A stretch of 64,000 bases of DNA, taken from assembly GCA_976226885.1 (NCBI GenBank), contig OZ320317.1:42408001-42472000 (forward strand), given 5' to 3'. Below the pieces are notes generated by a model that saw nothing but the letters and a program-made list of their open reading frames with translations, did not search any database and was not told the DNA's origin. Below are positions 4,094 through 57,636 of the stretch, piece by piece (within the stretch, counting starts at the first letter, position 1; each line of letters opens with the position of its first letter). Position numbers and translations under genes: made by a program. Source of the DNA: Iphione sp. A-MEVVRFRX5. Its lineage: Eukaryota.

Positions 4094-4129
4094 TCTCTCT
4101 TTCTCTTTCTCTCTCTCTCTTTCTCTCTC

Positions 4130-4166
<37 letters not shown>
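4094..4166. repeat. Imperfect (CT)n microsatellite
   Basis: Directly visible. Confidence 0.95.
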
Positions 4167-4168
<2 letters not shown>

Positions 4169-4575
4169 AGCCTTTGTTAGGAGGTAAATATTCCCTGATT
4201 ATATTTTTTGAACCGGAGAGTTAAATCATCTGCCTATCACTCCATGTAGCTTGTCCTTTCCGTCAGTGTATCTATACCCTTTTCTATATCTGCAGCTTTG
4301 CTCATCTCTAATAAGTGTACCATTGTGGTCTTGTCTTCAACATTTATTTCAGGGGTCTTTTCCCACATTATAGCCATGCCACTAGCACAGCGTCGAATAT
4401 ATCAATAAAACATTCCTCAGTACCTATAATATATTGAACTGAAGAAGAGAACATTTCCCCAGTTACCAACTCGCTATGACATGGTGACCCAAGTTATGAT
4501 CGCGATGCAGAAGTTAAAACCTCTGGTTTAAATAAGCGTATATATTCAAGTGTGTATCCTTCCTCGTATTCCTAC

Positions 4576-4733
4576 CTTTTGTATATAAACCTTAGTAGTC
4601 TTGTAGTGAATATATTTTTCGGCTGAAAGCAGCAGGTCACACACAGTGTACACGTTGACACAGTGTCTCATGTAGTTGGAACACCCAAGGACCAACTCGT
4701 CCAGGCTGTACTGCTCAGCAGCATTAATTAAAC
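4576..4733 (-). CDS. gprs: gprs-like gene, BTB end / BACK start exon
   Basis: Encodes LINAAEQYSLDELVLGCSNYMRHCVNVYTVCDLLLSAEKYIHYKTTKVYIQK. Acceptor is ttttcag|GT and donor is AAG|GTAGG. Length 158 nt is 2 nt plus 52 codons, consistent with phases 1 and 0. Confidence 0.92.
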
Positions 4734-5963
4734 CTGAAAAAATGGCGTTATAATTCATATTAGACTATGTAACTACGATATATAGCATCACTACATGCAC
4801 AACACCGTTACAATATTTAATTGTAGTCATGCGGGCGGTATAGAGACTTTATTGCCATGGATTGCATAAGAAATATAGTGTTCAACTGTTCACGACCACT
4901 AAACTTGTTGACAGAGAATAGCTGGGTCTTAAAATAATTCACTCAAGATGGGCAGGCACTCTTCTATATGTGGAACTGAAAAAATGTTACTACTATCATG
5001 TCTACTCAGCAAATAATGTAACATTGCCACGATGTTGTGGCAACGTTGTGTTTTGATTGTGGTAGTGTTATTATATAACATTGTAGCAACATAAAAGGGT
5101 GAAGTTTTCTAAACATGTCTATAATGTTGTGGTGAATCATTTGGAAAAAATTCCTGACACCATGACAAAACTAAAATGTCACATGTGGGATTTTAGCCAA
5201 CTATTTCTAATAAAAAGTACAACATCTAACTCACTGAGCTATTTTGACTTCTTCTGAATTGTTATTGAAAATGTCTTACCTTCATTTTCTAATGTAACCA
5301 AACTACATTTTAGAAACATTATTAACTAAACCACAATATTCTTGGTCTGTTTCATCCTAATGTTACTTGAATATTATGATTTAACATTTATATGTTTTAT
5401 ATTTTTTAACTTAATTATACTACAGCATTCTATACATGTTATAATGTAATTCTATCTGAAAATTGTGACTTAACATTTATACAACATTGTGTGAAGGTAT
5501 TTTTCTCACAGAACAAAACTACAATGTTGTAGAAACGTTGTGTCCTAGCTGGGTATCATTCTTATGGGAGACCGGCAGAAGGAAAATGATGTCAACAAGT
5601 TTCTGAAAGGATTTTTAAAGTTCATAGATCCAAGAAGTTAGGCTCGAGCAAGAACGAGCTCCAAGGTCAGAGGGACAGCTTAATTGGCAGAGGACCAACC
5701 AGGGGGCGGTTCACAGAGCCCGTCGTAAGCATCCCCCCCCATAAGGAAAGCAGTAAGACTAGGGGTTTAGATTACGGGGTACCTCTGGCAACAGTTAAAG
5801 TAGTAGTAGCTACTTATGCCTGACCACCTTCCAGCATTTACCAAGGATTTCTAACATCAGAATTAATGCCAAGCAGTTGAGCTGAGAACAGGAATAAATA
5901 CCTGCTGACCCGTCCTGTCGCTGGTTACCTCTATATGAGTGACGGGTTTAGCAATGGAGTTGA

Positions 5964-6051
5964 GGTATGAGTCTAAGGTTTAGACACAATAGCCGAGGGG
6001 TTGGACGATAGTCCAACCCCGAGGCATGAGTGTCTAAACCAGACTCATACC
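5964..6051. repeat. 88-bp imperfect palindrome (mini-MITE-like hairpin)
   Basis: Three nested arm pairs: GGTATGAGTCT/AGACTCATACC, GGTTTAGACAC/GTGTCTAAACC and GGGGTTGGAC/GTCCAACCCC around a GATA loop. Confidence 0.85.
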
Positions 6052-7475
6052 AATATGAAGTCGTTAAACTTTGTTCTGATATGGTTTGGATTTAAATTCT
6101 TATACTAACCGTTTGCAGGGCTTATAATTCTCAAGAGTTCACTCTTTTGGAATATGTCGACCGCTATAAGGCATGTTGAATGAACAGAGTGCACATGTTT
6201 GACATAGTTTGACATAGGAACTCAGTGAAGAACAAAATGGCGGACTGGTATTGACTTCAGTTTATCATGTTAAGCTGTAGAGAAAATAGACCATTTCAAG
6301 TGAAACTAAGACAAAAATGATTGAAATACAAAAGAAACACACATGTCTGATGTGTCTAGAATAAATTTTGACTTATATTTAAATTTTTTCGAAGTGTTTC
6401 ACTTTAATTGTGTCTCCAGTGCGCATGCTTGACATAGTTTTTAAGGTCGCCAGCATCTTAACTTGTATCTGGGCCATGATTAGTCCCAGGTTTTAATACA
6501 TTTCTTAAACATTGAAAGTATAGGATAGTCACGGAGAACCACATTAGAACAGCAAATCACTCTGACTTTCGGGATTTAATCAGGCAGTACCATTTTCTCT
6601 TACATTGTGTATATGCTGTTGTCACAAACAGGATACGATGAATCGAAATCTGGCTAATGCCAAGTCACTCCCATCCAATTTTCAATCGACGTCCTAAATC
6701 AACAGTTTGCGTGCATGTTCTTGTAAACATTATTAGAATTTGTTTATACATTGTATTTGTAGTATCGACCAGACAGATTCGTGGCGACAGCTGCGGAGAT
6801 CAATACCGATCTACGTGCTGATCCATATTTGTATATGCAGACAGAACATATATGATGTAACAGTTGTGAATATGATAAATTCTGTAATTTGTTGCGTTAA
6901 CACGCAGGTGAAAACAATTAAAGTTAATAAAATATCCATGTTTATGTCCGCTGGTCATTTCATATAAGTATAAAATGCTTGTATTTCAAAAGTTCGTTCT
7001 TATTGCTCTTCAGAAGAGTACTTGTTTTAGCTTGCGTTTCGAGAGAATGGTATACTTTCTTGCCTTACCAGCTTTAATCATATCTAAAAAGACTTCGACC
7101 GAAGTTCTAAAAGATCTGATGGGATGTTTTAATATTTTTGACAAGATTAGATCGGAAATACCACAGGAATTTTAGAAACACTTGAAGCTCAGTTTAGACA
7201 GATTGGCTTTAGGTATCCCTTTGACAGGTTTCTCAGTTGGCAGCGTTACACTTTAATCTTAATAGAAATTCCTGAATGTTATTTATGGAGCTTTTATTTC
7301 ATAGTCTTTGTCACTGATGGTTCTTGGAAAACTTATTCCTGTTACTTTGATTCCTTAAAAATAAGCAGGATTTTGTTCACAGCCATTGTGTTAAATGTCG
7401 TCGGACCTTCATTATCATAAGTATTATTGTTTAGTTCAAGCAGAATAGTATAAATCAACTGACAACTACACCCAC

Positions 7476-7795
7476 CTATCAATGATCTTGGCTCCAAAGT
7501 CACGGTTCCTGTATGTAGATACTGTACCAGTTTCCTGAAGACTTCCGGTTCAAACTCCTCAATGACCACCTGGGCCACCTGGGCTCCCCCACCACCACCA
7601 CCTCCGCCACCTCCTCCGCTATTGAGTAGGGGCACGGGGGCATCACTTGTCAAGTGACCTGTATCTGAAGCTCTCCTGTTAAAGAGGCGCAGATTGCCGA
7701 GGCCGGACTTGATGTTGGGTGGTTTGACGTCACTTAACTTACGGTGAGGCTTCTTAGTGATGCAGCTCTGGGTCTGGATCAGTTTTTGAATTGAC
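7476..7795 (-). CDS. gprs: gprs-like gene, exon with BTB insertion (poly-Gly) and BTB C-terminal part
   Basis: Part of ORF 7342-7833: SIQKLIQ...GGGGGGGGGGGAQVAQVVIEEFEPEVFRKLVQYLHTGTVTLEPRSLIG, compared with recalled gprs LIIEEFEPDVFRQLIEYIHTGCVTLQPRTLLG. Acceptor is ctttcttcacaccag|G (phase 2) and donor is G|GTGGGT (phase 1). Length 320 nt fits the neighbouring phases. Confidence 0.9.
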
Positions 7796-8198
7796 CTGGT
7801 GTGAAGAAAGATGCATCTTATTGACTGTTTCATCTGTTCTGAAGATGAAATATACTATACAGTAGCAACTCAGATTAAGAACTGTCAGTGGGGGCATGAA
7901 TACGAAATACATTATAGTAACATCTCAGAACAATTTGGCCCGTATTGTGAATTGCCTGCTACATGAGCTGGTTATATTATAGGAAAAATGCCATTGAGAC
8001 CAGCCAAATGTGCCCCTAATTCTGCGTTGCCTTCCTAGTTAAGTTGCCTGAGGTGAATTGCTACTGTATCTTGAATTAACGGTCTCTTTACTTTGTGTTA
8101 ACCTTGAATGGAGGCAGATAGAGGGGAATTGGAGAGTATTACGACTGGGTGTGAATCCATGTAACATGTTGGCATTCCGTGTGCGTGTAAACGGATAA

Positions 8199-21946: not shown

Positions 21947-23530
21947 CAGACAAACCTCATTTTCCAGAGTACCTCAGGATATCGATATCTTGTCCAGATG
22001 ACGAATTATCCAGAATGCGAAGAAGGCACTCATGTGTCTCCTGGAGGGGAAAACTGTCATAATCGTAAAGTATGGGAACCTAATCGATATTGAACTATAG
22101 TATTGGTTATCAATCTATATTGATTTTAAAGGCTTCCCATGCATCTCCTGGTGGGAAAAACTGTCATAATAGTAAAATATCGATGTTATTTTTAAACTAT
22201 AATGATTTTTATGAAGTTCTGAAAAATCATGAGACATTCAATTTCAGTTAGGGATAAGGGTATTTATTGTTGTCAGGAACAGATTACACATGTAATGTTT
22301 ATGCAAAAGTGCTAAACGACAATAAGTAACAAAATGGTGAAAGAAAAAAACTAAAAAAAAATAAAACATATGCATCAGACAGTACTAACAATCATTTTGC
22401 CCTGAAAAAGTCCTTGATAACAGTTTGTCTTGCCCTTTTGTGTGACTTGTGTGTTCTCTCCAAGAGGCATCTGGGGAATTGAACTCCAGGAAGGTCTTGT
22501 TGTTTTTCACACACCCAAAAGATCTACTGATCTTGTTACTTCTTTGAGTGTGATTGGAGGTGGGGTAACATCTTCAGTGTCATCTCTTGTCACCTGGGAC
22601 TCTGTCACCTCAGACTCTATTACCAGACTAAGGATTGCCTCATCAGTCATTTCAGCCTCAGCATCCAGTTGGTTGTAGTCTTCAGCTGACATGAATGGTT
22701 GCCAATTTTCACTGAGCATTGCCTGCAGAAGTGTCTGCAGCTCAGACAAGGGCATCTCATCTTCATCTGAGTAGTCTTCCTCAGATGTGGTCATCCCAGG
22801 CAGGATCTGGACATGGTCCCAGCACTTCTTGATTGTTGTCTGAGTGACCAATGCCCAGGCCTCATGAAGCATCAAGATGACCATTCTCAAGTCAGTGGCC
22901 ATGGGTTTATCTCTGTCCAAGCAGTCTAGGTAGTATCTTAACATCTTCCTGTATTTATCTTTGAAAGAGGCAATCATTCCATCATCAAGTGGTTGGATGT
23001 GTGAAGTTGTATCAGGGGGAAGAAATTTAATGGTCAAGTTTGAGAATGTGCTTTTGTGGGTCCGGCATTGTCACAGAGCAATAGATAGCAATGACCTTGT
23101 CCCTTTGCTCGTTGATTGAGCATCTGTAGGTAGTCGACCTACATGGTCGATGTCATCCACACCTTCTGGTTATTCCTATAGTGACAGTGCATTCCCGGAT
23201 CAAAGCCCCTGGAGAAACATCTACGTTTTGCTGATTTCCCAATCACCATAGGCCTAATTTTGTCTGTCCCGGTGGCATTACATGCCAACATGACAATGAT
23301 GTGATTCATGATTTTTTTCTCTCCCTTGACTGGCCCAGTTGCCAGGGTTGAGGTTGGCTTGAGCCTATAGAATAGGACCGTTTCATCTACGTTGTAGATA
23401 TCATCAGGATCAAATCCCACCAGCTGTTCCTGGAGGGCTGCATGACCCTCCTGAACTTGGTCGAGATTGACTGATGCAGCCTCTCCATGTTGTCTGAAGC
23501 ATTACCCATTTTGCTTACAGAACTTGGCTA
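21947..23530 (-). mobile_element. 5'-truncated, decayed Tigger/pogo (CENP-B-like DDE_1) DNA transposon
   Basis: Motifs are RQHGEAASV, DIYNVDETVLFYRLKPTSTLA, MLACNATGTDKIRPMVIGKS, WMTS, CDNA and FLPPDTTSHIQPLDDGMIASFK, with stops and frameshifts between the ORFs. Terminal TA|CAGACAAACCTC at 21947. Subterminal 33-bp direct repeats at 22037 and 22144. Confidence 0.88.
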
Positions 23531-38464: not shown

Positions 38465-41349
38465 CCCATTCCAGGCGGCCGATGCCCAGAGGCACTCCCG
38501 GGCGTAATACTGAGAATGCCTATGAGCACTTCCGTACAAAAGACGGAAGATGCCTTAAGGCATCTTTTTAGTGTTTATTATTTGAAATGAAGATTATAAA
38601 TAGAAATAATTGTTGTAATTTCGTGATTTTTGGAGGGTATTTAGGAAAGACATTAAAGTTTATTATATCTTAATTCCAACGAGAAATAATGAGATTTTTG
38701 TATTATTTTGGACGCTGCAACATACTCAGCTATCCCTCTGCTGTCATATGTAGCGAGCTGCTCTGACGTTCATTCATTGAGAGAGGTCCAAGGAACTCGT
38801 GAAAACAAGAGAAATGGCAGACCAGTTTTCTGATACAGATGAAGAATGGGAGGACGATTTTCCTCTTTCCACAATACGAATTCTTGACAGAATAGAAAAT
38901 TGCATGGGAGCAGACCATTGTGAAGATAGTGATAGTTCAGGTGAATCAGATGAGGAGAGCGCGAAGACTGCTGCATCCGCTGAGCAGCAGACAACAACGG
39001 CGGAGCGAAAATGGGTGCGTATCACTGGAAACATCAAGAAAACTCCAGAATTGCAGGAATTTGACGAGGAAAATTGTGGAATACAACCAATTGTGGATAG
39101 AGAGAAGACAAAGTCAGTATTTGATTTTTTTAGGGTCTTTTTCACTGTCGAATTCATCACTGAACTGGTAAACAGAACTAACGCCTATGCTCAGCGTCAA
39201 CGTACCGCGCATCCAGCGGGACATAAAGGCAGGTGGTATCCGACAACAATCCAGGAATTGACTCGCTTCTTAGGGCTCACGTTCATCATGGGCATCATAA
39301 GGAAGCCAGACTTGAAGGGATATTGGACGATCATAGAGGAATTTGACACCCCTTTCTTCAATAAAGCCATGCCAAGAGACAGATTCATTCAGATACTACG
39401 GTAAGTAAAAAAAAAACAATAAAAAATGAGCTTTCAACATTTTTCTATGGTTACAATGCATACAATTCTTGTAAACATAAAATTTGTGGAGATTCATGTT
39501 GGAATGGAATGAATTTCGATCAAATTATTAAATTGGATTCATTCTTCGTTATTCCAGCTATATCAATTTCGCAGCCCCGAGCGGTGATACCGACCCAGCG
39601 CAACCTGGAACATCTACGGATGCACCCCCGGCCAGACCACACACCCAATGAGCAAAGTCAGTTGGCTATTTGATTCATTCAATAAGATAGCCACTATGGT
39701 GTACAAGCCTCAGAGAGACCTTGCTATAGACGAATCTATGGTCAAACACAAAGGGCGTTGCAAATTTCTCCAATACATGCCAAAGAAACCGTCAAAATGG
39801 GGCCTCAAGTGCTGGCTCTTAGCAGAAAGCAGAACTGGTGAGTATTTGTAATAATATAATTTCATATAATTTTATAACGTTTGGGTCTAGTGGATCGAGG
39901 GTTTACTTGTAAAATCAATTCTGATACCATTTCAATCTGTAAAAAATCAAAACAACTGAGCATATATCTATTATTTTCTGACAGGATACGTTTTACGGAT
40001 GGACCCCTATTTTGGGAGAGAGGATCGAGGTGGACAGTCTCTCTATGAGCATGTTGTTATGAGACTTCTACGTGGAGCTGATGTCCTGGGCAAGTGTCAC
40101 CGGTTATATGTTGACAATTACTACACGTCTGTATCCATGTTTGAAAAGCTAGCTGCATTTGGTACATTCTGCTGTGGGACTCTAAGACTCAATAGGTTAG
40201 GATTGCCAAAATCCCTAATGGTGAAAAAACATGCATCTCTGAAAAGTAGAGGAGACTGCATTTTTTCTAAGTGTGGCCAACTAGTGCTTTGTGTATGGAA
40301 AGATCGGAGACTGGTGCATCTATTATCCTCAATTCATGGTACTATCATGTCTGCAGTGAAACGTGTGATGCAACAACCTGACAGTGGCAAATTTGCTAAG
40401 AGTGATGTTCCCTGTCCTGTAGCCATAAAAGATTTTTCCAAGAACATGGGTGCGGTCGATTTAGCAGACCAAATGTACCAGTACTACTGTTTTGGGAGAA
40501 AAAGCAAAAAATGGACAAAAAAGATTTTTTGGTTTATTTTAGAAATCATGAAGCTAAATGCATTCGTTATGTACAACACTATGGCATGCAAAAAAATTAC
40601 CCTCCTAGACTTCTCATACAAACTTGTTATGTCACTGATGTCCATGCAAGATGTATCAGTAAGGCACGAGCAAATTGTACAATCTAATAGGGATAGACTG
40701 ACAAAACGCTGCATGCCAGCAGATCTCTATAGAAAATCATTCTGTAGAGTCTGTTATCATCGTGTAAGGGTTGGTACTCAGATGACAAGGAAGCAGACAC
40801 GATATGGATGTAAGAGCTGTAATGTTCATCTTTGCATGCCGCATTGTTTTACAGTATATCATACTGTCAGCGACTATACATCGATCCAATGTGAGGAGTA
40901 GCTATTTCCAAGAAAAATACAGTCAAATGTTGGAATCCAAAAAAAAAAGACATATTAAATCAATAAACTCCTTGAACACTTCAACTTACCTTTTTGTCTT
41001 GTTAATTTCCTAAAAAATATATTTCTCCATAGCATTACACATGTATATCCGATTACGTAATAAGTTATCCGCTCGGTAATAATCCAGATTGTGAGATAAA
41101 AATGAATAATTTCACATATATCCATAGCAAGATGCAATCAGTAATTTCTCCCATTGATATAATCCATAATGTCTACACATGTCATATCCAAAATAGTTCC
41201 ATTTTTATATAAATATCGAGTCTGGTGACGCTCTGCGCTTTGCATAACGAAATAGTAAAGTTGGGGTGCCGCCCTCTATAGGAAAGCGGTAGCATTAGGG
41301 CGCGCCGTGACGTTATGTCATAAAACGATAGGGGGCCGCCTGGAATGGG
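38465..41349 (+). mobile_element. Complete piggyBac DNA transposon (2885 bp) with TTAA target site duplication
   Basis: TTAA (38461-38464), perfect 16-bp TIRs CCCATTCCAGGCGGCC (38465-38480 and 41334-41349), then TTAA (41350-41353). Encloses a transposase gene and an AATAAA at 40962. Confidence 0.96.
38814..40901 (+). CDS. piggyBac transposase, 3 exons (38814-39400, 39558-39837, 39985-40901), about 594 aa if a 1-nt frameshift in exon 2 is corrected
   Basis: Splice sites are CG|GTAAGT...TTCCAG|C and G|GTGAGT...TGACAG|GA, restoring FIQILRYINF and ESRTGYVLRMDPYFG. The DDD triad lies in LAIDESMV, LYVDNYYTS and GAVDLADQ. C-terminal Cys-rich domain is CRVC...RKQTRYGCKSCNVHLCMPHCFTVYH. Confidence 0.92.
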
Positions 41350-44181
41350 TTAACTTTACTATTCTCTCTGCTAGAGCACAGTACAATTACAGTAACCCAC
41401 ATGGACAAAAGCAAGTTATTGCCATACGTGTGGTTAGTATTAGCGTAGCTTTTACATTAAGTATTTTTATGCTGTGCATCATTATCTTCAAATAAAATAA
41501 TTATATTTTTCAATACCATGACTGCATGCCTTTCATAATGTTGTGTTAAGAAAAGGGAAAATATTAGACATTTTCAAGAAAGGGTGCGTAATTAATATGG
41601 AAGTGGAAAGGAGGTGAATATGTATAGAGATTAGTAGTTCTAATATAAATCAGTGAACCTTCCCCTAATGATAATGTGGCATGTGCATGCATGAGAACCA
41701 CTGTATGTTGGTCTGGGAGAATCTGTAAAGATGATCTATAGCCAAATCCGTAACGAGTGATCCGCGACAGGTGAATCCGTGACGCTCGGAGATTCAGGTA
41801 ACCCCCTAAGGGTACTGCGTAATTAGGGTGCATTGCAGCAGACTTGTTTATTTACTGTGTAGATTCTCCCAATCCAGACATATGTCTAGACAGGTTATTT
41901 TTAGAAACTCTTATGTAATACACTCATATATAAACCCATGTTTTGTGACTCTTTCTTCCAGCACACAAGAGAAAGACCACCCCATGCACAACTATATTCG
42001 TGTAACTGGAGTGAACCAGATTCTTTTATCTTTGTTAAATTTATTCATAATTCAACCTTTGCCTGCTAGAGCTCATTCAGACTTTAGACACGTTACAATA
42101 ATTATTCTTGACTGATTGATTGATTGCCTTACAATCTTTGCTCTGTACAACAAGGTTATTTGTTGTAAGGTTTAAATGAAGAACATCAAGTTGATATGTA
42201 CAGGAAGGTGCGGTTTAAAATAAACAGTGCTGAATAACTACAAGAAGGATTAGTTTGTTGTCTTTCTTTGTTACTTGCTGGAAGGTTGTCAAAAGGTAAA
42301 CACATTATTAGATATTAAAAGGGAACTGTCATTGGCTTTCGTGATGAAAATATGACAGGCCCTTGATGACTCGACTCACAAGTTCAGGAGGAAAATATGA
42401 TTAAGATATATAGGGGAAAGTCTAGTTATCACTGTCAAAACATGAAAAATGGTAATGAATGATCTTTGAGCATAGACACATACATATCAATTCAGAAACC
42501 CAATATGGTGTCTTTATATTTTCGCATCAACAAGCCATAAGATGATCATGTGATCTGAAAATGACTCTCATGTGCTCTGAAAATGACTCTCACCCCACTA
42601 AGATTTGCGGAGATTTTATTTCAGAATCAAAACCTAACCCCTAGATATAGGTAGGTAAGTTGGTAGGTAGTTAGGTAGGAGGGTAGCTAGGTAGGTAGTA
42701 ACAGATCGAGCTTGCATTGACAAATGTGCAAAGACCGAGGCTGCTTAGCTTGTACGGGAAAGAGAGGGGGTGGTGGGGCATAGCTATAGGCAGGGGTTAA
42801 AGAGGGAGCTAGGATGGTAGGGAGGGACGAAGGGAGGTGGAAGGCAAACATGGGCGAGCCCTTCTCCATAACACCAACTGACATTACCCAAATCTAGACC
42901 CTGGCTATCTTATTAGTCTGACCGTCGATAGAGGAAGTCACAGACGTGCACAGCGCCATATTGAATTACGTCCAACGCCACCAAAGAGAGACACGTGGGC
43001 TTGCTCAATGTAAGGGATTGTTATCCCAATCAATCAAGTTTTTTTTCTATTCTTTGGTCGAATCTTACTTAGCGTTCTGTGATCATAGGAGAACACATTT
43101 ACCGATAGACACCCTTTTGAGCAGGAGTATTTTCGTAACTTATTGTGCATTACATCTTCTTTGTAAAGAAATAAATATTAGACAAAAGAATGATTTATTC
43201 ATTCCTGCAATATTTCCTCAGAGCCTAATGATGTCACTTTTAGAAAACTGACTTTTATGTTCCTTTTCCAGCAAAACAAGTTAAATATGTCGTAATGCAG
43301 ATAAGGGTTATAAAAGGTTTCTTTGAGAGTATCGGAGAAAGCTGCAGAGGAATATGGCTGCACAGCATAAAGATTTCGAAGCATCGCCAAACCATTTCCA
43401 GGAGAAATTTAGATTTGGGAATGCTACTGGGTTCATGATATTTCTATCGAACTACTAGCGGTTGGTTTTAGTATATTTTGATGGATGATTCTACCGTCAC
43501 AGACCGTTGTTCAAGAGTATCATTCAAGAAGGTCTGTGCTGAAGAAGGCTGTGTGTGGTTAGAGCCGGCTGGGAGAATATCCGCGTCCTCATGCGGACGC
43601 GGAACGGAAAAATCCGCGTACATGTGAACAGCGCCTAATGTTTCCCGTTTGTTCATTCATTTATAGTATGTTTCTTTTTTATCCTTGATTATTCTCCCTC
43701 TCTTGAAGGGATGGAAGTTCCAAAGTCTATGCTGTATTGGTAGGAACCAAGACAGTATAGAAAAAATTACCACTGGGTTGATAGAAGGGCTCTAGCTTTA
43801 GCTTTGGAGATGTTAGCAGTGCATAGAAAACTAAATTATACTTACTAAACAAGTATGGTTTTCCCTATTTTTTTATTTGTTCTTATTTCAAGGCAAACCA
43901 AATTGCACTAAGTCCGTCATGGTCTGTTATCTACCTTCAAGATGTGCAGACTTGTTGACCCCCCCCCCGAAAATATACTACTAGGGTGGCTAGTTTTCAT
44001 ACGAGCTGCATTCATCTGTCTGAGACGCTCTATACCAGACATTTCGCGCTGGCACCAAGATGTAAGCATTGATTTACTGCATTTTGGAGAAAGGACACTA
44101 CTAATTTAAGAAAACCTAACTGAAGGAACCATAACAATCCTAAAACATCTATCTCAGGTTCTGATTCATTTAGATCAAAGC

Positions 44182-47100
44182 TCATCATTGGGTGCCGTCT
44201 TCATCACGAAGGTTGGCTGCCATGATCCTCCAGCTTCTGCGATCTTGTGCCTTCCTAATCAGGTCGTCATATTTCTTTATTCCACTCCATTCCATTATGT
44301 TGTTAATCCATTCTGCCCTAGGTCTTCCTCTACCTCGTTTTCCATTCACCTTCCCTTCCAGCAGCAGTCTCTGTATGTTGTTTCTTCTAACCATATGTCC
44401 GAAGTATACTAGTTTCCTCTTTTTTACAGTGGTCAATATGTAGGGCTTCTCTTGAATCATGTTTAAGACCTCCTCATTTTTGACTTTTTGTGTCCAAGAT
44501 ATTTTCATGATTTTTCTATACACCCACATTTCAAATGCTTGTAGTTTCTTTATACTGTTTTGGCTGATAGTCCAAGTCTCACTTCCATATAGCAGTGTGG
44601 TCCACACATAGCACATGGTAATTCGTTTTCTTGTAGCTATGCTTATATTACGGGATGTTAATGTATTAGCCATGTTATTAAAAGCACCTCTTGCTATTTC
44701 TATTCTTCTCATTATTTCAGCATCACATTTGCCATCATCAGTGATCAGTTGTCCCAAGTATACAAAAGATTTAACCTGTTGAACATCAGAACCATCTATT
44801 TCTATGTTCAATGATGTGTTGTTATTCTTGGAGATTAGCATACTTTTGGTCTTCTTGGCATTCATTTTCATACCGAAATTCATTCCTTTGGTGTTGGCAT
44901 CATTTAATATTTGTTGTAGTTCTTGTTCACTTTCAGCAAGCAGTACTGTGTCATCTGCATATCTTAAGTTGTTGACTACTCTTCCACCAATGTTTATTCC
45001 TTTTTCTTTGTCTATACACCTAAAGATGTTTTCTGTATATAGATTGAAAAGGGAAGGTGACAGCACACAACCCTGACGTACTCCTCTTTTGATATTTATT
45101 TCTGGTGACAATCCTTCTTCAGTTTTTATGTAGGCTTTCTGGTTCCAGTAGAGATTTCTTATCAATTTGATATCTTGCCCATCCATGTCTACCTGATGCA
45201 AGCACTTAATCATCTTCTCATGGTTCACCCGATCAAACGCTTTCTCATAGTCTATGAAACATAGATAAAGGTCCTTGTTGTGGTTCATATATTGTTCTAT
45301 TATGGTACGCAGGTTGAAGATACCTTCTCTTGTTCCCTTGCCTGTGATAAATCCACTCTGGGCTTCATCAATTTCATTTTCTATGGTTTTTCTATTTCTT
45401 TGTAGGATGACTTTCAGAATAACTTTCAGCATATGGCTCATCAGACTTAATGTTCTATAGTCAGAGCAATTCACCGCTTTAGCTTTCTTAGGTATTCTTA
45501 TAAATACTGATTCATTCATGTCAGGTGGTATGAAACCTGAATTGTAGATCATATTGCATAGTTCTGTAATCTTCTTTACACCTTTGTCATCAAGTGCCTG
45601 TAGCATCTCAGTAGTAATGTCATCTTTTCCACTTGCTTTACCTGGTCTCATATTTTTTATAACATTCACAACCTCAGCAGTTATAATGTCACATCCAGTG
45701 TTTTTGTCTATGTCTGGTGTTTCACCTCTCTCATCGTAATATAGCTCATTAACATACTGAACCCATCGTGTTGCAATCTCCTCATTATTAAAAAGCATGT
45801 TTCCATCTTTATCATTTATGCAGCTACTTCCGCTTTTACTTTTTGTCTTTTTTGTTATTTCTTTTATCTTCTTGTGCATCTCTTTAGATTTATGGCTTTT
45901 ATCTAAGTCTTCAATTTCTTTGCATTTTTCTTGCCACCATGCTTCTTTTGCCATCTTGCACATGTGTTTGACTTTCTTATCTTTTTCTTTATAGTCAGCA
46001 GTTCCTTTATGTTTCTTTCTTTCTATCATTTCTTCCAAGATTTCATCAGTCATCCATACCTTTTTCTTTTCTCTTCTCTTTTTAGGTAGTATTGTTCTTG
46101 CTGATTGTATTAGTGTCTCTTTCACTGTTTTCCACAATGATTCAATTTCATCTTCAGTCTGTGTGTCTCCTTCCACATTCAGCATTTCAAACCGGTTGGT
46201 CACTTCTACACCATATTTAACTTTATATTCATTTTGTTTCAATAGGTCCATATCTATCTGTTCCTTGATAGCACTTGCAGTAGGCTTTTTCAGTTTGATC
46301 TTTATTTTGATTACGACTGGGTTGTGGTCTGACCCAACATCAGCTCCGGGGTAAGTTTTGGCTTGTTTCACACTGTTTCTGTAGCGTTGGTTTATCATAA
46401 TGAAGTCAATTTGATTGCGGTAGATGTCTCCCGGGCTCTTCCATGTGTACAGTCTTCTCTTAGGTTGCTGGAACCAAGTGTTACTGATCATCAGATTATG
46501 TTCTTCACAGAATTGGATTAGTCTTCTTCCTCTATCATTTCTGGTACCTAAGCCAAATTTTCCTATAATGTTTTCATATTCTTCTTCTCCAACCTTTGCA
46601 TTGAAATCACCCATAACAATTATGATTTCACCGCTCTTGACATATTTCATTGCTTCTTGAAGTCCATTGTAGAAGGATTCTAATTCCTCATCACTGTGGG
46701 CACTTGTTGGTGCATATGCCTGTATAATGTTGATATTGACAGGTTGGCCTTTGATTTTTGTCATTATTATCCTGTCTGAAATTGGCAGATATCCAATCAT
46801 ACTCTTTGCAATTGAGTTGTTCATCATTATGCCAACACCTTTGCTATGATGTTCTCCGCCGGAGTATATGAAGGTATGTTGATCGTACTTGTTCTTGCCA
46901 CTTCCTGTCCATCTTGTCTCAGCTATGCCAAGAATATCAAGCTTCATCTGTTTCATTTCTTGAATAACATTATCAATTTTTCCGGCTTGATACATTGTTC
47001 GGACATTCCATGTTGCTATGTTTAAGATATGACCTCTGGTTTTCATTCTCATCTTATCAGATACTTGTCTTCCAAAAGGATTTAAACTAATATCGTCATC

Positions 47101-47695
47101 ACTTTGAGATGTACTTTCCATAGATTCAATATCTTCTTCCCTGTCACTTATGAGAGAATCTGCTGCAGGGGACCCAGCATCACCTCTATCACCATCACCA
47201 TTTCTACTTCTAAGGATCATGACTAACTATGGGTCTGATACTCTGTGAGTTCCCAAGCTCTTCAGAGGAGGCTGGCCGATCATCCTGTAACCTAGGATTA
47301 CGCCCTGGGCATGCCACACACCTTGTAATTTTCTGTTGGAGTTTACTTCTCTTAGCCTTTGCCTGTGTAGGCAGCCCTGTAAGGCAGCAGGGGGATTTGA
47401 ACTCAGAGTTACCTTCTCCTAGATCCCTCACAGCTTTAGCCTGGGGCCGCAAGGTGCCCAGTTACCATGGTGCGCCGCGGGGAGGCACTGTAAGAGTCTT
47501 GACCAAAGGCATGTTAAAGGCATCAGGGGAGGGCTTACTCACTTGGCCTCCCTTTTCACCCTGGCGGGTTAGATGTCGGTTGCAGCAAGAAGCAAAAGTC
47601 ATGCGAGGCAAAGCAAAGCAAAGCAAAGCAATCCCGTCACCACACTATACTACAACACTAACAATCCTAGGGCCCTGTGTTATTTCATAACACCA
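44182..47695 (-). mobile_element. Full-length RTE-clade LINE with 10-11 bp target site duplication
   Basis: AGATCAAAGCT occurs at 44172-44182 and 47695-47705. The 5' UTR is about 475 nt, and the 3' end is a (TGA)2 tail that includes the stop codon. Confidence 0.9.
44185..47220 (-). CDS. RTE LINE single ORF: AP endonuclease plus reverse transcriptase, 1011 aa, uninterrupted
   Basis: Endonuclease motifs are WNVRTM, ILGIAETRW, QAYAPT, MGDFNA, NQIDFI and GSDHNP. RT motifs are YRTLSLMSH, FIDYEKAFDRV, GVRQGCVLSP, LRYADD and YLG. The RTE-type end is RGRGRPR..W. Confidence 0.97.
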   Translation of the reverse strand: MILRSRNGDGDRGDAGSPAADSLISDREEDIESMESTSQSDDDISLNPFGRQVSDKMRMKTRGHILNIATWNVRTMYQAGKIDNVIQEMKQMKLDILGIAETRWTGSGKNKYDQHTFIYSGGEHHSKGVGIMMNNSIAKSMIGYLPISDRIIMTKIKGQPVNINIIQAYAPTSAHSDEELESFYNGLQEAMKYVKSGEIIIVMGDFNAKVGEEEYENIIGKFGLGTRNDRGRRLIQFCEEHNLMISNTWFQQPKRRLYTWKSPGDIYRNQIDFIMINQRYRNSVKQAKTYPGADVGSDHNPVVIKIKIKLKKPTASAIKEQIDMDLLKQNEYKVKYGVEVTNRFEMLNVEGDTQTEDEIESLWKTVKETLIQSARTILPKKRREKKKVWMTDEILEEMIERKKHKGTADYKEKDKKVKHMCKMAKEAWWQEKCKEIEDLDKSHKSKEMHKKIKEITKKTKSKSGSSCINDKDGNMLFNNEEIATRWVQYVNELYYDERGETPDIDKNTGCDIITAEVVNVIKNMRPGKASGKDDITTEMLQALDDKGVKKITELCNMIYNSGFIPPDMNESVFIRIPKKAKAVNCSDYRTLSLMSHMLKVILKVILQRNRKTIENEIDEAQSGFITGKGTREGIFNLRTIIEQYMNHNKDLYLCFIDYEKAFDRVNHEKMIKCLHQVDMDGQDIKLIRNLYWNQKAYIKTEEGLSPEINIKRGVRQGCVLSPSLFNLYTENIFRCIDKEKGINIGGRVVNNLRYADDTVLLAESEQELQQILNDANTKGMNFGMKMNAKKTKSMLISKNNNTSLNIEIDGSDVQQVKSFVYLGQLITDDGKCDAEIMRRIEIARGAFNNMANTLTSRNISIATRKRITMCYVWTTLLYGSETWTISQNSIKKLQAFEMWVYRKIMKISWTQKVKNEEVLNMIQEKPYILTTVKKRKLVYFGHMVRRNNIQRLLLEGKVNGKRGRGRPRAEWINNIMEWSGIKKYDDLIRKAQDRRSWRIMAANLRDEDGTQ

Positions 47696-47696
47696 G
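47427..47696 (-). ncRNA. HDV-like self-cleaving ribozyme in the RTE 5' UTR (core 47427-47494)
   Basis: Minus strand reads: P2 CUUACAG, P3 GCC, L3 UCCCCGC, P3' GGC, P1' GCACCAU, P1.1 GG, UAA, P4 CUGGG...CCCAG, G-C-UAAAG (catalytic C at 47439), P2' CUGUGAG. The P1 5' strand is either UGGUGU at 47695-47690 or GUGGUG at 47643-47638. Confidence 0.8.
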
Positions 47697-50600
47697 ATCA
47701 AAGCTACATAAGAGTAATTCAAACAGACTCTTTACATCTGCTATTCTCGCTGCTCCCTAAACATAGTAAACCGGATCGGGGCTGCAACGAAATCCACGAC
47801 CAAAAATTAAGTACTCCTTGTATTATTGCAGCTTCAACCAATGGCTAGCCATCTGACTTGGAACTTTGGCTTATCACTTTTAAGCTATCACCATTGACCG
47901 ATCGGCTGTATGCAAATAGGCGGACCTCGGTTACAGGAAAAACATCAATGTATGTACGTGATATACTGATGCTAAAATTGAATGTAAGACGAGGATATAT
48001 TAACTGGTGTGTGGGTGTGTGAGTGTCTGGTGGTTGGTTGTTAAAATAAACAAGTTTGTATTTTTGTGAGTGGTGGCCTTTAATTTGTACATGAAGGCTG
48101 TTTGTGCATGAACCTGTGTGATGGAATGTGTGCATATCGCTGGTTGTTAAATGTGTGTGGTTCTATTTACTGCAGTGCACTGCCATGTGTCGGCTCTCCT
48201 CAATGAGTACGTGAATATATTGCTGAATGTGTCTCAGTCCATCCGTACGTGTTTCGGAATGATGTAGGCTTGACTTAGGGAACTGTAAACGTAATTTGAG
48301 ATGCAGCACAACTGGACTCACCGTTGTTGCTTATATTCAGTAAATTGGAAAACCGCAGCATTTGCCGTTTGCCTTTAGACCTAATCATAGAATGTTTCTT
48401 CGTGGTGGGGTAGGTTGGTGTGGTCCTTTGAGCTTGCGATACATATGGCCAGATTCACGGATATGTATCCTCTGCGGCAGGTGTCCTGATGTGACCCAGA
48501 GGGCTTTCCCACAAGAACCATACAAGCATGCATTGGTACAAAAGAGGATGTGCTGCTAAGATGCACCAAATAAAGCTTATAGGATCAATCCCATCGAATG
48601 AGGGGTAAAGTAAAGCATGCCCTGAGGGACATAGCGACAAACGGTTCAGACAAAGAAATGCAATATGTACCCAGAATCTTATGAACAGATTAGATCTGTG
48701 AGTAATTCTTACAAAATGTCTTTTTCTAAACTAGAGCATTTTTTTAAACTAGCGCATTTGTCATTATTTCTTATTTTATACCCGGGGAGACTTGTGCATC
48801 GCAATTTTTCTGTCGATTTTAGCCAAAAAATACCTTATATTCATACATATTCATATATGACATTTTGTAGTATTCCTATGGAAAGTGTTGAGCTAAGCTG
48901 AGGAATACCTTTGTATGTGCTTCTTTTAAAAAATGCCCTTTATGTGATATGTCTACTTTGTCATACAAATATCATGGTGTGTTCATTTCGCTGAGCAAAG
49001 TGGAACATATGTGTCTTCTCACCAAGTACTATATATGTAACTGAAGGCAATACCTTTGAGCTAGCAGTGGTACTTTGAGGGGAAATGTCTCGTGCAAATG
49101 ATACATTCGCGCTACTTATAACATTTTCTTCAGCCCGGTTTGAAATTAAATTGCAAAGTGAATGTATTGTGCGGGCATGTGTACATGTACATTTTACACG
49201 ACAAAACCAGATAAGGTGTGTATGGTCCGGGGTGCCTGGAATCAATGATAGAGGAATGAAAGCGTATGGAGTTTTTTAAAAACATTATTAGCCCTGGTCA
49301 AAATTAAGGCCAAGCTTTAACTGATCAAAACAGTATACAGTTACATATACTTGTAATTTACGCGAACTAATAAAATCCAAAGAAACTCACATCTATAAAT
49401 AAAACCAAACACAAGCAATCCACACAATTAGAACACAACTCAATCAACATCACACTTACTACCAAAAAAGCACAACCAAAACAACTTTCATACAACACAC
49501 CCACAAAATCGAAAGCCCATAAATACCCCAACAACTTCACTAAATTACAACTAGACACATCAATTCACAACTAAATATCAATATACGAAACACAGCCGCA
49601 TTCAAAGGTAGATACAGGCATTCAGCACTATAGAGCCTGCTGACGTTTCAGCCACAAGCAAGTCGGTACTCGTGTAGTGCGCTTTTTATGTCCTACTATG
49701 AATAGAATAGACTGCATTTTCCTGTGTAAGGAATATAACGAAGGTTATTAAGTCCTGTTTCTGGAAAGGAAGATATGACTCCGAACGTTAGATTTGAAGT
49801 AGACTTATTCAATATATATTTACAAGATTGAAAATGTGCAGGTAGTATTGAAATTGTTAAAAGTAACTGAGAAAAAAATTATGAATGAACTGCATAGGGA
49901 GGGAGGGAACCAACCAGAGGCATCAGGAAATGATATGACTATGCAAATTATCTTTCCACGTGGAAAAAGGTGAATCTTTATGACTTAAAAACGCTTCTGT
50001 TTCGAAGCATCGAGTCACAAGTCCCTATAGATTCGCTCCCATATTTTGACAGCCTGTGGGTGTGGCCGAAATTGCATTGGAGGGTTGTTTTTTAACCTTA
50101 GCAACAATGAAGGGTCTCCTTGTGTAGCCAAGTCAGGTAGAATAACTTACACTGTTTATAAGATCACTTTCTGTGCATATCAGACAACACCAAGAAACCG
50201 TTAGTTCCGGTACTGCGTCAATGAGATGTTTCGAGAACCTATCCATATTTCGCACACCATGTAAAAACAGTAGACGGAGGGAGGCGTACGTCCTTTACTG
50301 ACTAGGCTTCTAATAGGTGCTCCGTTTCTATATTCTCTCATGTATGAAAGTAAGCGAGGTCCAGAGACGTTAGTATTATGGTTTTAGGTGCGGATATTGC
50401 ACATGCATGGCTGTCTGCGGTCTGCACATTGTCTGGATTGGTTTTTACACCCAGGTAAAGAGGTTAGCAGTCAGGTTTCATTGATCATTCTTACACCAAT
50501 AATCCACCCGCCTATCTCCCCATCGGTCTTATCTCCGCAACCAAATAGAAAGCATACTACGCTGCGTCTCTTTGTTTTATCTGAAGATTTCAGAATTGCT

Positions 50601-53758: not shown

Positions 53759-54883
53759 TTATTTCATGTAGATTTTAGCAGCGTTTGACTTCCAATCTCC
53801 TTTCTTAAGTACCTCCTCCACCGATTCCCCACTCTGAAGGGCATGACGTGTTCCCCCATGCCTAAGGCCGTGAATGGTGAACTTTTCTTTGACTTTTAGC
53901 CTCGTTAAGGCCGCATTCCATACTCTTCTCTTGTATGATATAGGTATGGGATCAGCATTATCAGCGAAGGACACAAGTGGTTGCAACGCAGAGAGAGTAG
54001 GGGATTCTCTCAACATCGCCCAATAGGCACAAATCACTGAGGGTTCTGCTCCTTCATCTAATACCTGGCAGTACATTGGTCTCGTAAGCGTCTGCCTTGT
54101 CTTTGACCATCTTACCGTAAACGTACACGTTTTACCAGTAATACTCAGGTCAGCCCGAGTGAGCTGTCTACGCGAATCAAACAATTTTACAGATCGAGGG
54201 CAGAAATGCGACTGCCTCAATAATGACCTATACATTGCTATCAGGGCGAAGGCAATCGACCTTCCGTACTTTAAACGCGATATTATCGATATAACCTGCA
54301 TCAACAGTTCAATTGTGACTGGGGACCGACAAACAGTGGTGGATGTTGATTCAAGGCGCATAGCCCTGAGAGCATTAGAGACTGGACGGGAGGTCCATGC
54401 GGGACTCGGTCTGTCCATGTCTGCATAATGGGACCTCAATGAGCTTACGATGTTGGCTACAGTCTGTGTCGACACCTCCAGGGCCACGGCCTCCATGAAG
54501 GCACAGATGTGATGTGGTTGAGGGTCTTTGTAGTCGATGTCGTGCGCCAGGCAGAATCCGAGGAAACGTCTGACAGCTGATTTCCTATTAGCCGACGTTC
54601 CCGGCCGTATCGCCTGCGTCTGTCTCGTCTCGGCCCTCCAGAGGAGCCTCTGTAGTGTTGGATCTGTAGAGGAAATGTTTATATTGTATGGCCAGAGGAA
54701 TGAAGCTTTTTTGGCGAAGATGTAAGGACGAGACCATGTCAAGTGCCATCTGCTTGTAATAACGGGATACATGCCATCTCGACAGAGCATCTGCGAGTGG
54801 CATGTCCCGTCCAGGAACATGAGCAAATGAGATCTGGATTCGATTACGTGCCTGAATAAACATGGATAGCCGAATGCAAGCAT
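53759..54883 (-). CDS. Tyrosine recombinase (YR); true start uncertain
   Basis: N-terminal AIRPGTSANRKSAVRRFLGFC. Catalytic residues are R (YRSLLRQSHF), K (WSKTRQ), HxxR (HGLRHGG), W and Y (GDWKSNAAKIY). The frame overlaps pol by 296 nt. Confidence 0.92.
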   Translation of the reverse strand: MLAFGYPCLFRHVIESRSHLLMFLDGTCHSQMLCRDGMYPVITSRWHLTWSRPYIFAKKASFLWPYNINISSTDPTLQRLLWRAETRQTQAIRPGTSANRKSAVRRFLGFCLAHDIDYKDPQPHHICAFMEAVALEVSTQTVANIVSSLRSHYADMDRPSPAWTSRPVSNALRAMRLESTSTTVCRSPVTIELLMQVISIISRLKYGRSIAFALIAMYRSLLRQSHFCPRSVKLFDSRRQLTRADLSITGKTCTFTVRWSKTRQTLTRPMYCQVLDEGAEPSVICAYWAMLRESPTLSALQPLVSFADNADPIPISYKRRVWNAALTRLKVKEKFTIHGLRHGGTRHALQSGESVEEVLKKGDWKSNAAKIYMK

Positions 54884-56576
54884 TTATTACTTCGTCTCTC
54901 GCCCTGTTTGCATTCATGGCCTGTACAGTTGCCTGGTTATCACAACAAATGATGACATGAGTATTATGTGGGCAGCCATAGACAAAGTGCCGGATGGCCG
55001 CGAGACAGTTAATGCATTCAAGTTGGGAGATATGCATGTGAGAGAGTGACGTCGGCCACTTAAACCTATAGTCATGGGTAAAGTCGGATGCACCTGCACC
55101 GGACAATGAGGAATCAGCCACAATGACGTATGTCGGGGAAGGCAAACGATAGTAGGAGTATACATTGAATTCATACATAAGTTGGCTTAGCCATAACAGA
55201 TCACTACGTATCTCTGGTGTGATGTTCACCTGGCCGTCTACTTGGTTGCTTATGGCTAGTAAGATAGACGACAAAAAGCTCCTGGCGATTTTAACAACCT
55301 TAGATGTATGGTTGACCTTTCCAGCTAGGCTTTGAACATATACGAGAGGGGCACGAGAAAGTTTTGTCGCCTCAGTGAAGGCTTGTTGGTACTCATACAC
55401 CTTTTGTGTTGGAATGTGAAGGGTGCACGCCTCAGTATCAATAAGGATACCCAACCACAAGGCAGACCTTTTAGGGGGTTGAACCTTATTCGGAGCAGTG
55501 GTTAAACCTAAACTCTGAAAGAGTGAGAGAATATAATCGTAGTCTGAGTCTGCTTTTTGACGTCCATCCGATGCACACACAAGGTCATCTAAATACATCA
55601 AAGTGTGAATGCCCCAACTCTCGAGATGCCTAACAATAAATTCTGCTACTTTTTGCATCACTACTGAGCTTGTTCGAGCGCCAAATGGCAAGACTGTGTC
55701 AAAAAAGAACTGGCCGTCGTGGTGGATACCCAACAACGGCCAGTCCAGTGGGCATACAGGGAAATGCCTGTATGCCCGTTTTAAGTCGATTACAGACAAG
55801 AAGGGGTCAGTCATATGCGACAACAACTCAGTAAGGTGGTTTACAGATGGAAGCGTGTGGGGCATTTTTTCCCCGTACCAGACACCTTTTTCTATAAACC
55901 TGTTCACATTTGATGTTGAATAAGATAAATCGACAATTACCCGACGGGTCCCATCTGCCTTAGGGGCAGTCATCATGGGCGAGACATTACACCATGGCGT
56001 GAACGGGAGTGACGGATATGGGCCTGATAGGGCACCCAGCTGGGTCTCTGTTGTTATGTACTTTTCGATGTCAGTGGGATACCTAGCCGCTGACGGGTGG
56101 TTAGGGGACACGGATTGGTTACCAAGAGGTGGGCTGGTGTATTGCATTGAGAACCCATACCTCATTCCCGCTAACACCATGGCGTCATGTGGGTGATCGG
56201 CAGCTATCGCTTCCCATTGAGGGAGGCACAAGCACGATGGAACCTGGATACGGCTGCCGAGGGCATTTGGTGTACCTGTAGATTTAACATTTTCATACAC
56301 AGAACACAAAACATGACAAGAGTGGTATGACAATTCTGGCCAGGTGCTGGCCCTAAGATCTGAAAACGGTGAATGAAACCATTTCAAGTGGGGGGCTGGT
56401 TCGGGGACGAGGTCCCCGGATGGATGAAGACTGCCCACAGAGTGCGGGTCAAGGGTGGGGGGTGGTATGGCGTGGCCATCGAGATCCGGACCGTAGAAGT
56501 CGTATGGGTGGACCGTGTTATCTCCACCGGGGAGAGGGGGGTGAGTGGTACCCGCCCCGCCGACGCCCGGTGGGGC
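54588..56576 (-). CDS. DIRS/Ngaro-type reverse transcriptase plus RNase H (open frame of 662 codons after TAG; track ORF 616 aa from a GTG)
   Basis: RT motifs are SPMMTAPKADGTRRVIVDLS, DLKRAYRHFPV, LPFGARTSS and YLDD. RNase H motifs are VADSS, ISQLE, CDNQATV and HVPG...LADALSR. The frame is open up to the TAG at 56579. Confidence 0.93.
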   Translation of the reverse strand, partial: APPGVGGAGTTHPPLPGGDNTVHPYDFYGPDLDGHAIPPPTLDPHSVGSLHPSGDLVPEPAPHLKWFHSPFSDLRASTWPELSYHSCHVLCSVYENVKSTGTPNALGSRIQVPSCLCLPQWEAIAADHPHDAMVLAGMRYGFSMQYTSPPLGNQSVSPNHPSAARYPTDIEKYITTETQLGALSGPYPSLPFTPWCNVSPMMTAPKADGTRRVIVDLSYSTSNVNRFIEKGVWYGEKMPHTLPSVNHLTELLSHMTDPFLSVIDLKRAYRHFPVCPLDWPLLGIHHDGQFFFDTVLPFGARTSSVVMQKVAEFIVRHLESWGIHTLMYLDDLVCASDGRQKADSDYDYILSLFQSLGLTTAPNKVQPPKRSALWLGILIDTEACTLHIPTQKVYEYQQAFTEATKLSRAPLVYVQSLAGKVNHTSKVVKIARSFLSSILLAISNQVDGQVNITPEIRSDLLWLSQLMYEFNVYSYYRLPSPTYVIVADSSLSGAGASDFTHDYRFKWPTSLSHMHISQLECINCLAAIRHFVYGCPHNTHVIICCDNQATVQAMNANRARDEVINACIRLSMFIQARNRIQISFAHVPGRDMPLADALSRWHVSRYYKQMALDMVSSLHLRQKSFIPLAIQYKHFLYRSNTTEAPLEGRDETDAGDTAGNVG

Positions 56577-57636
56577 CTAGTTCTTTGCAGCAGTAGACTG
56601 GGCCTCGGGACGGTCCAGTTGGTCCTGCCTCTTTGCAGAACAATCTGGGCCGGAGTGCCTGGCATCATGTCGGAGGTGTGGTGAGCCATCCTGTCTGCCG
56701 AGGAGCACAACGATGCGCCATCACCATACCGTCGACTGTGTGGCCGTCAGGCTCCAGGCAAGTACCCGCGTTATACATATGGCAAGGGTGGCGTTTCATG
56801 TCGTCGGGGATAGCGCCCTTCACCAGTGAAAGACGTGTACGCAATGCCTGCAATGAGTCGGCCTCAGCCCAAGAGATATGGCCATGGTTTACTTCGTCAA
56901 CCACGGCTAGAGACCACTCCCGCACCGCCGACCATTTTGATGTCATAGCGTCCTCACAAATTTCGGCAATATGTCGGACAATATGCAATGGGGCAGAGGA
57001 AGCCTTGGCAAATGCACAGAGCCCGATGATATGCTCCAAAACAGTGAGTTCATCTGGGTTAGACCTAGCCTTTATCACAGGTATCAGGTTACGTGGCAAG
57101 GCCATGTACGGGCGGGGGAACCTAACGAATTTTTCTCTTATGGGATCGTAGACTCGCTTACCCTTTGAGCAGGGAAACTTGGGCAGTTCGTCCTCCATTA
57201 TATCGTCCAGAGCTCGTATCTGAGCACTATGGCCGATATACGTGTCCTTGGCTTTTTCTTTCTTTGCCGTGGTCGGGGAGTCGAACTCTGAGCCGGATGA
57301 GCCGCCCTCGTCATTGAGGCCCGTAGCTTTTCGTGCGGCCGCCATTTTCAGCTTGCGCCGGGTGACCGGTACACGTGTAGCTGGCTTCTTTCTCTTAGCC
57401 TGGAGTTGTTTCTTCTTTTTTCAGTTTTCCTTCTCGAGGAGGAGACCTTGGAGTGCTGAGTCCATTGTCGAAATTTTGTCCAGTATCTCATTTATATGAG
57501 ACAACTGGACCTGTGGCACAGCCGGCGGGGGCTGCGCGGGTGGCTGCTCGGACTGAGTAGTCTGGCCCGAGCCCGTGGCCGCTGCCGGGTCAGTGTGACC
57601 GGCTGGGCCGGGTTGTTTCTTGCGGCGAGGAGCCAT
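56577..57636 (-). pseudogene. Gag-like ORF with an in-frame TGA (57421-57423) and a probable frameshift near 56700
   Basis: ORFs 57421-57669 and 56665-57345 share a frame across one TGA (N*KKKKQ). ATG is at 57636 (MAPRRKK). The conserved-looking core is WSAVREWSLAVVDEVNHGHISW, followed by the Cys/His region CHMYNAGTC...H...HRC, which continues as HSGPDC in the pol frame up to TAG at 56579-56577. Confidence 0.75.

Follow-up and report, generated by a model that had tools for sequence, protein, structure and literature searches.

An HDV-like ribozyme fold heading a young family of RTE-type LINEs, with a conserved SECIS-shaped hairpin at the start of the ORF

The 64-kb window (the whole stretch of DNA analysed here) holds on its minus strand a LINE headed by an HDV-like fold, which raises two questions: does this fold set the element's 5′ end by self-cleavage, and how could RNA cut in this way, which would be uncapped, be translated? 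HDV-like ribozymes are known from RTE elements, which they release from co-transcripts and whose translation they may assist (PMC6765202, PMC5786205, PMC3774820; published work is cited throughout from the available portions of its text). We consider it quite probable that the HDV-like fold heads a young RTE-type LINE family whose members start at the G of P1, and that it likely self-cleaves there although the window copy is probably impaired. More tentatively, a conserved hairpin in the first part of the ORF may bind a host protein of the L7Ae type. The element comprises the following features.

44183..47695, minus strand: RTE-type non-LTR retrotransposon of 3513 bp, a young copy with its 5′ end 6 nt short relative to the family, an (ATG)n tail and target-site duplications (TSDs)
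44185..47220, minus strand: intact single ORF encoding AP endonuclease and reverse transcriptase (RT), first AUG at 47220
47695..47705, unstranded: 5′ copy of the 11-bp TSD, base 47695 being common to TSD and element
44172..44182, unstranded: 3′ copy of the TSD, 11 bp

We label the LINE RTE-type by its architecture and the names of its homologues, not by a tree with named references. It has an ORF of ~1000 aa with the AP endonuclease ahead of the RT, a short 3′ end with a microsatellite tail, and a TSD; the homologue name 'Craniofacial development protein 2' we take to be a Bov-B/RTE link. The main ORF has no internal stop. Six sister copies differ from the window LINE at only 12-29 positions over 3513 nt (~99% identical), indicating that the family is young. 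Among the viral contigs searched, no relative was found.

The fold that heads the element is laid out as follows.

47421..47499, minus strand: HDV-like core, with P2 47499-87/47434-21, P3 47486-84/47476-74, L3 47483-77 and P1′ 47473-67
Same core, continued, minus strand: P1.1 GG 47466-65, P4 47461-57/47445-41 and catalytic-C equivalent 47439

All motifs of the nested double pseudoknot listed in the original prediction (P2, P3, L3, P1′, P1.1, P4 and J4/2) lie on the minus strand where they had been placed, and its candidate for the catalytic-C equivalent, C47439, sits in J4/2 as judged from the motif positions and the descriptor match. The L3 motif, the P1.1 GG and, in J4/2, the catalytic C followed by purine-A are all present. 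P2 is longer than first described, with 10 continuous pairs (47496-87/47434-25), or 13 with one bulge. A self-written HDV-like descriptor, with its consensus taken from general knowledge and numbering after PMC1874588, returned exactly one core from both strands of the window and none from 150 dinucleotide shuffles. The order of P1, P1.1, P2, P3 and P4 is kept in family copies, P1 being complete in L031 and its sisters. No Rfam ribozyme family matched window positions 42000-50000 at E<=10. The HDV-like core is real and belongs to a known class. It shares with the HDV-like RTE ribozymes (Ruminski 2011, via the citing papers PMC6765202, PMC5786205 and PMC3774820) and with drz-Agam-2-1 of Anopheles (PMC4908430) the nested double-pseudoknot core, the predicted cut at the first P1 base as the element's 5′ end, a large J1/2 with a closing stem, and a P2 of >7 bp. 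It differs from them, as far as the available descriptions go, in belonging to a new family with tandem P1 strands (the inner one predicted to be masked), in the truncation of the copy at hand and in that activity here is predicted.

Between P1 and P2 lies a large insert.

47501..47674, minus strand: J1/2 peripheral domain, with a predicted long interrupted closing stem pairing 47674-58 with 47517-01

J1/2 measures 193 nt in the register of the original prediction and 198 nt in that of the family. Its description as structured did not hold in general, since the 198-nt insert folds no better than shuffled sequence (z -0.79; 38 of 200 shuffles as good); even so, a terminal hairpin and the closing stem are predicted. 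The stem ends 4 nt before P2 and matches the 'pinch' build of Agam-2-1; in the available account of Agam-2, a large J1/2 is likewise combined with an extended P2 (PMC4908430).

Comparison with distant relatives was limited to metagenome relatives with enough upstream DNA. L114 keeps the HDV-like topology with wholly different letters in P1, P2, P3 and P4, and L113 and L116 keep it with different P2, P3 and P4; the core scores of L114 and of L113/L116 were reached by none of 100 shuffles, and Rfam gives L114 a sub-threshold HDV match (29.9 bits, cut-off 44). In L113 (162-360) and L116 (681-880), a hairpin is inserted into an L3 of 27 nt, and P1 again has a tandem pair of 5′ strands, spaced by 9 nt. 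Helix covariation across families is thus seen as the same topology with other letters in two distant families, rather than as a formal alignment count. The covariation within the family to which the original prediction had looked did not appear, older copies showing decay of the core and not compensatory change. L119, which by eye resembles a minimal HDV-like core, was not recovered by the descriptor search and is not counted, and pattern matches in L068, L069, L073, L074 and L079, with no RTE ORF and no full fold, are attributed to chance.

The 5′ ends of genomic copies bear on where the fold would cut, and three stretches of the window copy are needed to follow them.

47690..47696, minus strand: inner (second) P1 5′ repeat, whose position 1 is a target-derived C forming a C.U mismatch, with 6 pairs; the outer 7-nt strand is missing
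47677..47693, minus strand: predicted masking hairpin (7 bp) over the inner P1 repeat, with a 6-bp version in the older subfamily
47637..47643, minus strand: internal alternative P1 strand, with G.U at position 1, 6 pairs and A.G at position 7

We compared 20 copies with a match reaching the 5′ end (L022 and L028 left out) and the window copy; three copies on C6 have the same flank (293-294 of 294 bases) and count as one, which gives 19 insertions that are independent. Ten of these 19 start six bases (GUGGUG) upstream of the first base of the window copy, four lack just 1-2 of the six extra nucleotides, and five do not start near G1 (L042-L045 and the window copy), L042 and the window copy starting near the inner P1 register. 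Ahead of G1 the ten full-head copies differ in their base (C, A, A, T, A, T, T, T, G, T) and have no common sequence; in L031 and L033, the last base of the TSD is precisely position -1. P1 in full-head copies has 7 bp and begins at G1 with the canonical G·U pair; since a second identical P1 strand lies 5 nt after the outer one, there are two perfect registers. The UGGUGU that had been put forward as the P1 partner does begin at the TSD junction (U 47695 being shared with the TSD), but it is the inner repeat and not the P1 of the family, since the sisters start 6 nt upstream with GUGGUG. The sharp boundary common to copies at G1 of the 7-bp P1, found by the proposed check of genomic 5′ ends, supports processing at the level of the family.

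Two registers pose the question of which is used. For R2 elements with a duplicated P1, it has been pointed out that a cut at the inner one would cost the element its duplication (PMC3774820). Both LINE subfamilies keep the duplication, and the outer P1 is therefore likely the register in use. More specifically, we posit that the outer P1 would be used as the hairpin masks the inner repeat and the closing stem draws P1 and P2 together, as in Anopheles Agam-2. The masking hairpin, predicted to hide half of the inner repeat, has lost one A-U pair on both sides in the older subfamily, leaving 6 bp. R2 ribozymes resemble the present family in having two P1 candidates at the junction, a long J1/2 and, where they cut at the element end, junctions that vary; in the available account of R2 the duplications derive from 28S target DNA (PMC3774820), whereas here the repeat is encoded by an element that is not site-specific. 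A likely outcome of self-cleavage at G1 would be the release of element RNA from read-through transcripts of the host.

The window copy is 5′-truncated and has no G1. It is without the six outer bases, no mismatch-free 7-bp P1 occurs within 500 nt, and position 1 is a C from target DNA facing U, so that no G.U pair opens P1. A G1.U37 pair is reported as required for full activity, with changes reducing it (PMC1874588), and P1 mismatches have been linked to inactivity (PMC3774820). These comparisons suggest that the window copy is probably impaired as a ribozyme. This is not certain, since only 1-4 kcal/mol separates the predicted energies of the registers and these vary with the flank: among five copies folded, the outer register is best in L031 and L033, the inner in L040, and the internal 47643 site in the window copy and L036. 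The window copy could instead cut, if more slowly, at the inner register with its C.U mismatch, as first proposed, or at 47643 through a 6-bp P1. That it is still competent by either route is a minority reading with appreciable weight: the inner register retains 6 pairs, the 47643 site opens with a G.U pair and is preceded by U, which is the best base at -1 (PMC1874588), 6-bp P1 helices occur (PMC4908430), both registers are predicted to be 2-3 kcal/mol better than the free fold, and L042 and the window copy start near the inner one. Against this, C.U occupies position 1 of the inner register, whose strand must melt the 7-bp hairpin and leaves a long floppy linker, and none of 32 matching copies starts at 47643.

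Much further from the evidence lies a reading in which the HDV-like fold has no catalytic activity and the 5′ boundary reflects an internal promoter or a reverse-transcriptase stop. Promoter activity is reported for the 5′ regions of some LINEs (PMC5786205), no Rfam ribozyme family was matched and activity is only predicted; however, the boundary coincides with the pairing partner of the final P1′ base, at a distance of 230 nt, the topology is retained with other letters in L113 and L114, and the catalytic C and L3 motif are intact in 13 exact core matches, making a silent fold highly improbable. Core anatomy and the family 5′ boundary thus support the central claim of the original prediction, an HDV-like ribozyme of already known class heading an RTE-type LINE.

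Taken together, the copies grade naturally at the cut site from a full head through a loss of 1-2 nt to a loss of 6 nt, with a second P1 register in reserve, and this series shows how an element with its catalytic site as first base survives imprecise 5′ copying. Extra copies of the 5-nt head repeat occur in L046 and L049 at the junction just upstream of the element start, which suggests slippage or re-priming, by which a missing 5′ end could be restored. In L043 and L044, the 5′ head is joined to inverted element sequence.

A second structure lies ~120 nt into the ORF, within the first 60 codons and 330 nt beyond the ribozyme fold.

47044..47111, minus strand: form-2 SECIS-like kink-turn hairpin inside the ORF start, with helix I, AUGA 47099-96 and helix II
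Same hairpin, continued, minus strand: AAA 47083-81, helix III and GA 47058-57, giving AUGA-N12-AAA-N22-GA at 47099-47057

A second, high-copy RTE family is present in the same genome (L108-L111, L123-L126, L138; ~40% identity). Its head is twister-P1-like (Rfam 24.8-38.6 bits, below cut-off), and it has a SECIS-like hairpin ~230 nt before the endonuclease motif, with the AUGA holding the first AUG.

Rfam SECIS_1 (RF00031) scores the window hairpin weakly (23.7 bits at 47048-47108, cut-off 35), and its folding z is -1.34. At the equivalent place in relatives the model scores 35.8 (L116, above the cut-off of 35), 32.9, 32.9, 31.9, 31.8, 25.5 and 24.8 bits, and there was no Rfam SECIS match for L164 (E<=2) or L108. 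Of 40 loci put to a spacing test, 19 have AUGA-N12-AA-N23-GA at 72-95 nt ahead of the endonuclease motif and form 8-11 of 11 pairs; these 19 represent six families with 37-61% endonuclease identity to the window. The other 21 are truncated or decayed copies, L119, L163 (which lacks upstream DNA) and, at 28-31% identity, each of the 11 loci from more distant families. A looser spacing test gave matches in 8-26 of 2000 shuffles per segment. Covariation was scored over seven rows (six families and one subfamily copy): both sides have changed in nine of ten helix-II pairs, and the score was reached by none of 500 shuffles (0.78 against 0.26 for shuffled rows and 0.09-0.24 for slid controls), the rows being few and the structure, drawn from them, favoured over the slid controls. 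RNAalifold recovers the same helices unaided; helix I is absent from the consensus fold, and is predicted in seven of eight folded examples (the window, L113, L116, L117, L164, L108 and L138, not L114). The strict UGAN/KGAW core occurs in four of the six families, L113, L116 and L108 departing from the KGAW core consensus of PMC3753652, and an unpaired AAA 12 nt from the core and a small helix III are kept in all six. A box C/D register of the kink-turn fits three families by eye, with shorter helices, and was set aside. A SECIS-shaped structure is thus conserved at the ORF start under both HDV-like and twister heads.

Form-2 SECIS elements are marked by helix I, an AUGA/GA core, a helix II of ~11 bp, an unpaired AAA and helix III (PMC3328465, PMC3753652; Rfam RF00031), and the LINE hairpin shows all of these marks, with the kink-turn core, the ~11-bp helix II, the AAA, helix III and a predicted helix I. 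It departs from them, as described in those sources, in lying in the first 60 codons and not in a 3′ UTR. Because no conserved in-frame UGA exists upstream of it in the window and its relatives, the hairpin fails as a recoding SECIS, and the likeness is one of shape. The only AUG-to-UGA frame of the window leader ends at a UAG two codons on, and relatives differ. An upstream selenoprotein ORF was rejected, its UGA positions not being conserved, as was recoding of an in-frame (UGA)n tail, L164 having UAA before the tail. SepSecS exons on C22 place selenocysteine machinery in the host genome.

What, then, would the hairpin do? It may bind a host protein of the L7Ae type, for example SBP2/SBP2L, and the bound protein would help uncapped RNA engage ribosomes rather than recode UGA. 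We hold this fuller proposal, in which SBP2/SBP2L or another L7Ae protein binds and helps uncapped RNA to reach ribosomes, tentatively and at somewhat less than an even chance. About as probable is a general kink-turn that serves the element's own protein or eL30/15.5K in RNP assembly, with the SECIS likeness convergent and SBP2 uninvolved. This would accord with a hairpin placed in coding sequence and with no UGA to recode, and the R2 protein, for its part, binds structure near the 5′ end of its own RNA (PMC6765202). What speaks against it is that all six families retain both the small third helix and the unpaired AAA at a distance of exactly 12 nt from the core. A plain kink-turn needs neither.

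A broader form of the SBP2 proposal would have many RTE LINEs, HDV-like- or twister-headed, carry a working SECIS mimic by which SBP2/SBP2L brings ribosomes to the uncapped cut RNA without UGA recoding. We rate this as doubtful; if true, insertions would scatter ready-made SECIS elements into host transcripts. For the translation of ribozyme-cut, uncapped LINE RNA, the hairpin brings forward a candidate both for the RNA element and for the host factor involved. Its conservation in HDV- and twister-headed RTEs makes the translation question testable and would bear on the origins of SECIS elements.

The hairpin leaves a codon footprint, [DN][DE]x4[NK]x7-8[DE], in 71 of 111 homologues with enough of the N-terminal arm (shuffled mean 1.0, maximum 6). 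That the SECIS-like pattern is a mere by-product of protein conservation in this arm is the least credible reading of all: the hairpin does lie in coding sequence in five families, where it leaves conserved residues, yet the footprint pairs share codon prefixes (N/K, D/E, D/N), N/K is preceded by one of L, S, P, V, R and Q, all of which have codons that can end in A, the helix pairs covary, and the twister-headed sister family has the hairpin in another reading frame, which largely refutes protein constraint.

A SECIS-like hairpin in an RTE leader or ORF start is apparently undescribed, and we think a prior mention somewhere rather unlikely. The literature on SECIS or kink-turn structures in RTE elements and retrotransposons, covered as titles and abstracts with few subscription papers and no supplements, yielded only the Naiad Penelope-like elements (PMC8557442). 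These likewise have a SECIS-type structure in an invertebrate retroelement; as described in the available text, it is a type I SECIS just past the stop codon, with 3-4 in-frame UGA at conserved cysteines, whereas the LINE ORF has no internal UGA and its hairpin is of form 2 at the ORF start. Closer in setting is Perere-3 of Schistosoma mansoni, an RTE with a twister and not an HDV-like head, whose ribozyme-processed RNA is translated without a cap (PMC8501958). By eye, the two AUG contexts quoted there fit the hairpin: they read AUGA-N12-AA and a strand with GA at its end, the distance between them is ~35 nt (33 expected), and they give seven consecutive pairs; the word SECIS is absent from the available text of that paper.

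Other features of the ORF start were noted. An in-frame UAG two codons ahead of the first AUG (window 47229-47218) is also found in L113 and L114, which makes three families. Other homologues read K-L-V-M at this site, so that the letters, and not the stop itself, seem to be conserved. A second conserved stretch, at 47175-47140 on the minus strand and in homologues, encodes the peptide G/E-P/T-P-A ... D/Y-R-E-E and may be another RNA hairpin under codon-level constraint. An RTE subgroup with a different N-terminal arm (SLGRD ... QVxPDRH), comprising P0089, P0092, P0097-P0121 in part and L119, is without the SECIS footprint and possibly has a different RNA element. A perfect Kozak-like AUG within P1′ opens only a 10-codon ORF and is regarded as coincidence.

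Two of the loci, L163 and L164, are short eukaryotic RTE contigs inside two bacterial metagenome-assembled genomes and are likely contamination. The LINE shares the window with the following sequences, the last of which lie on its own strand.

38781-40901, plus strand: piggyBac-like transposase, in two frames
53759-57420, minus strand: second broken RT element
22507-23501, minus strand: DDE_1 transposase remnant
2079-7854, minus strand: weak BTB/BACK exons
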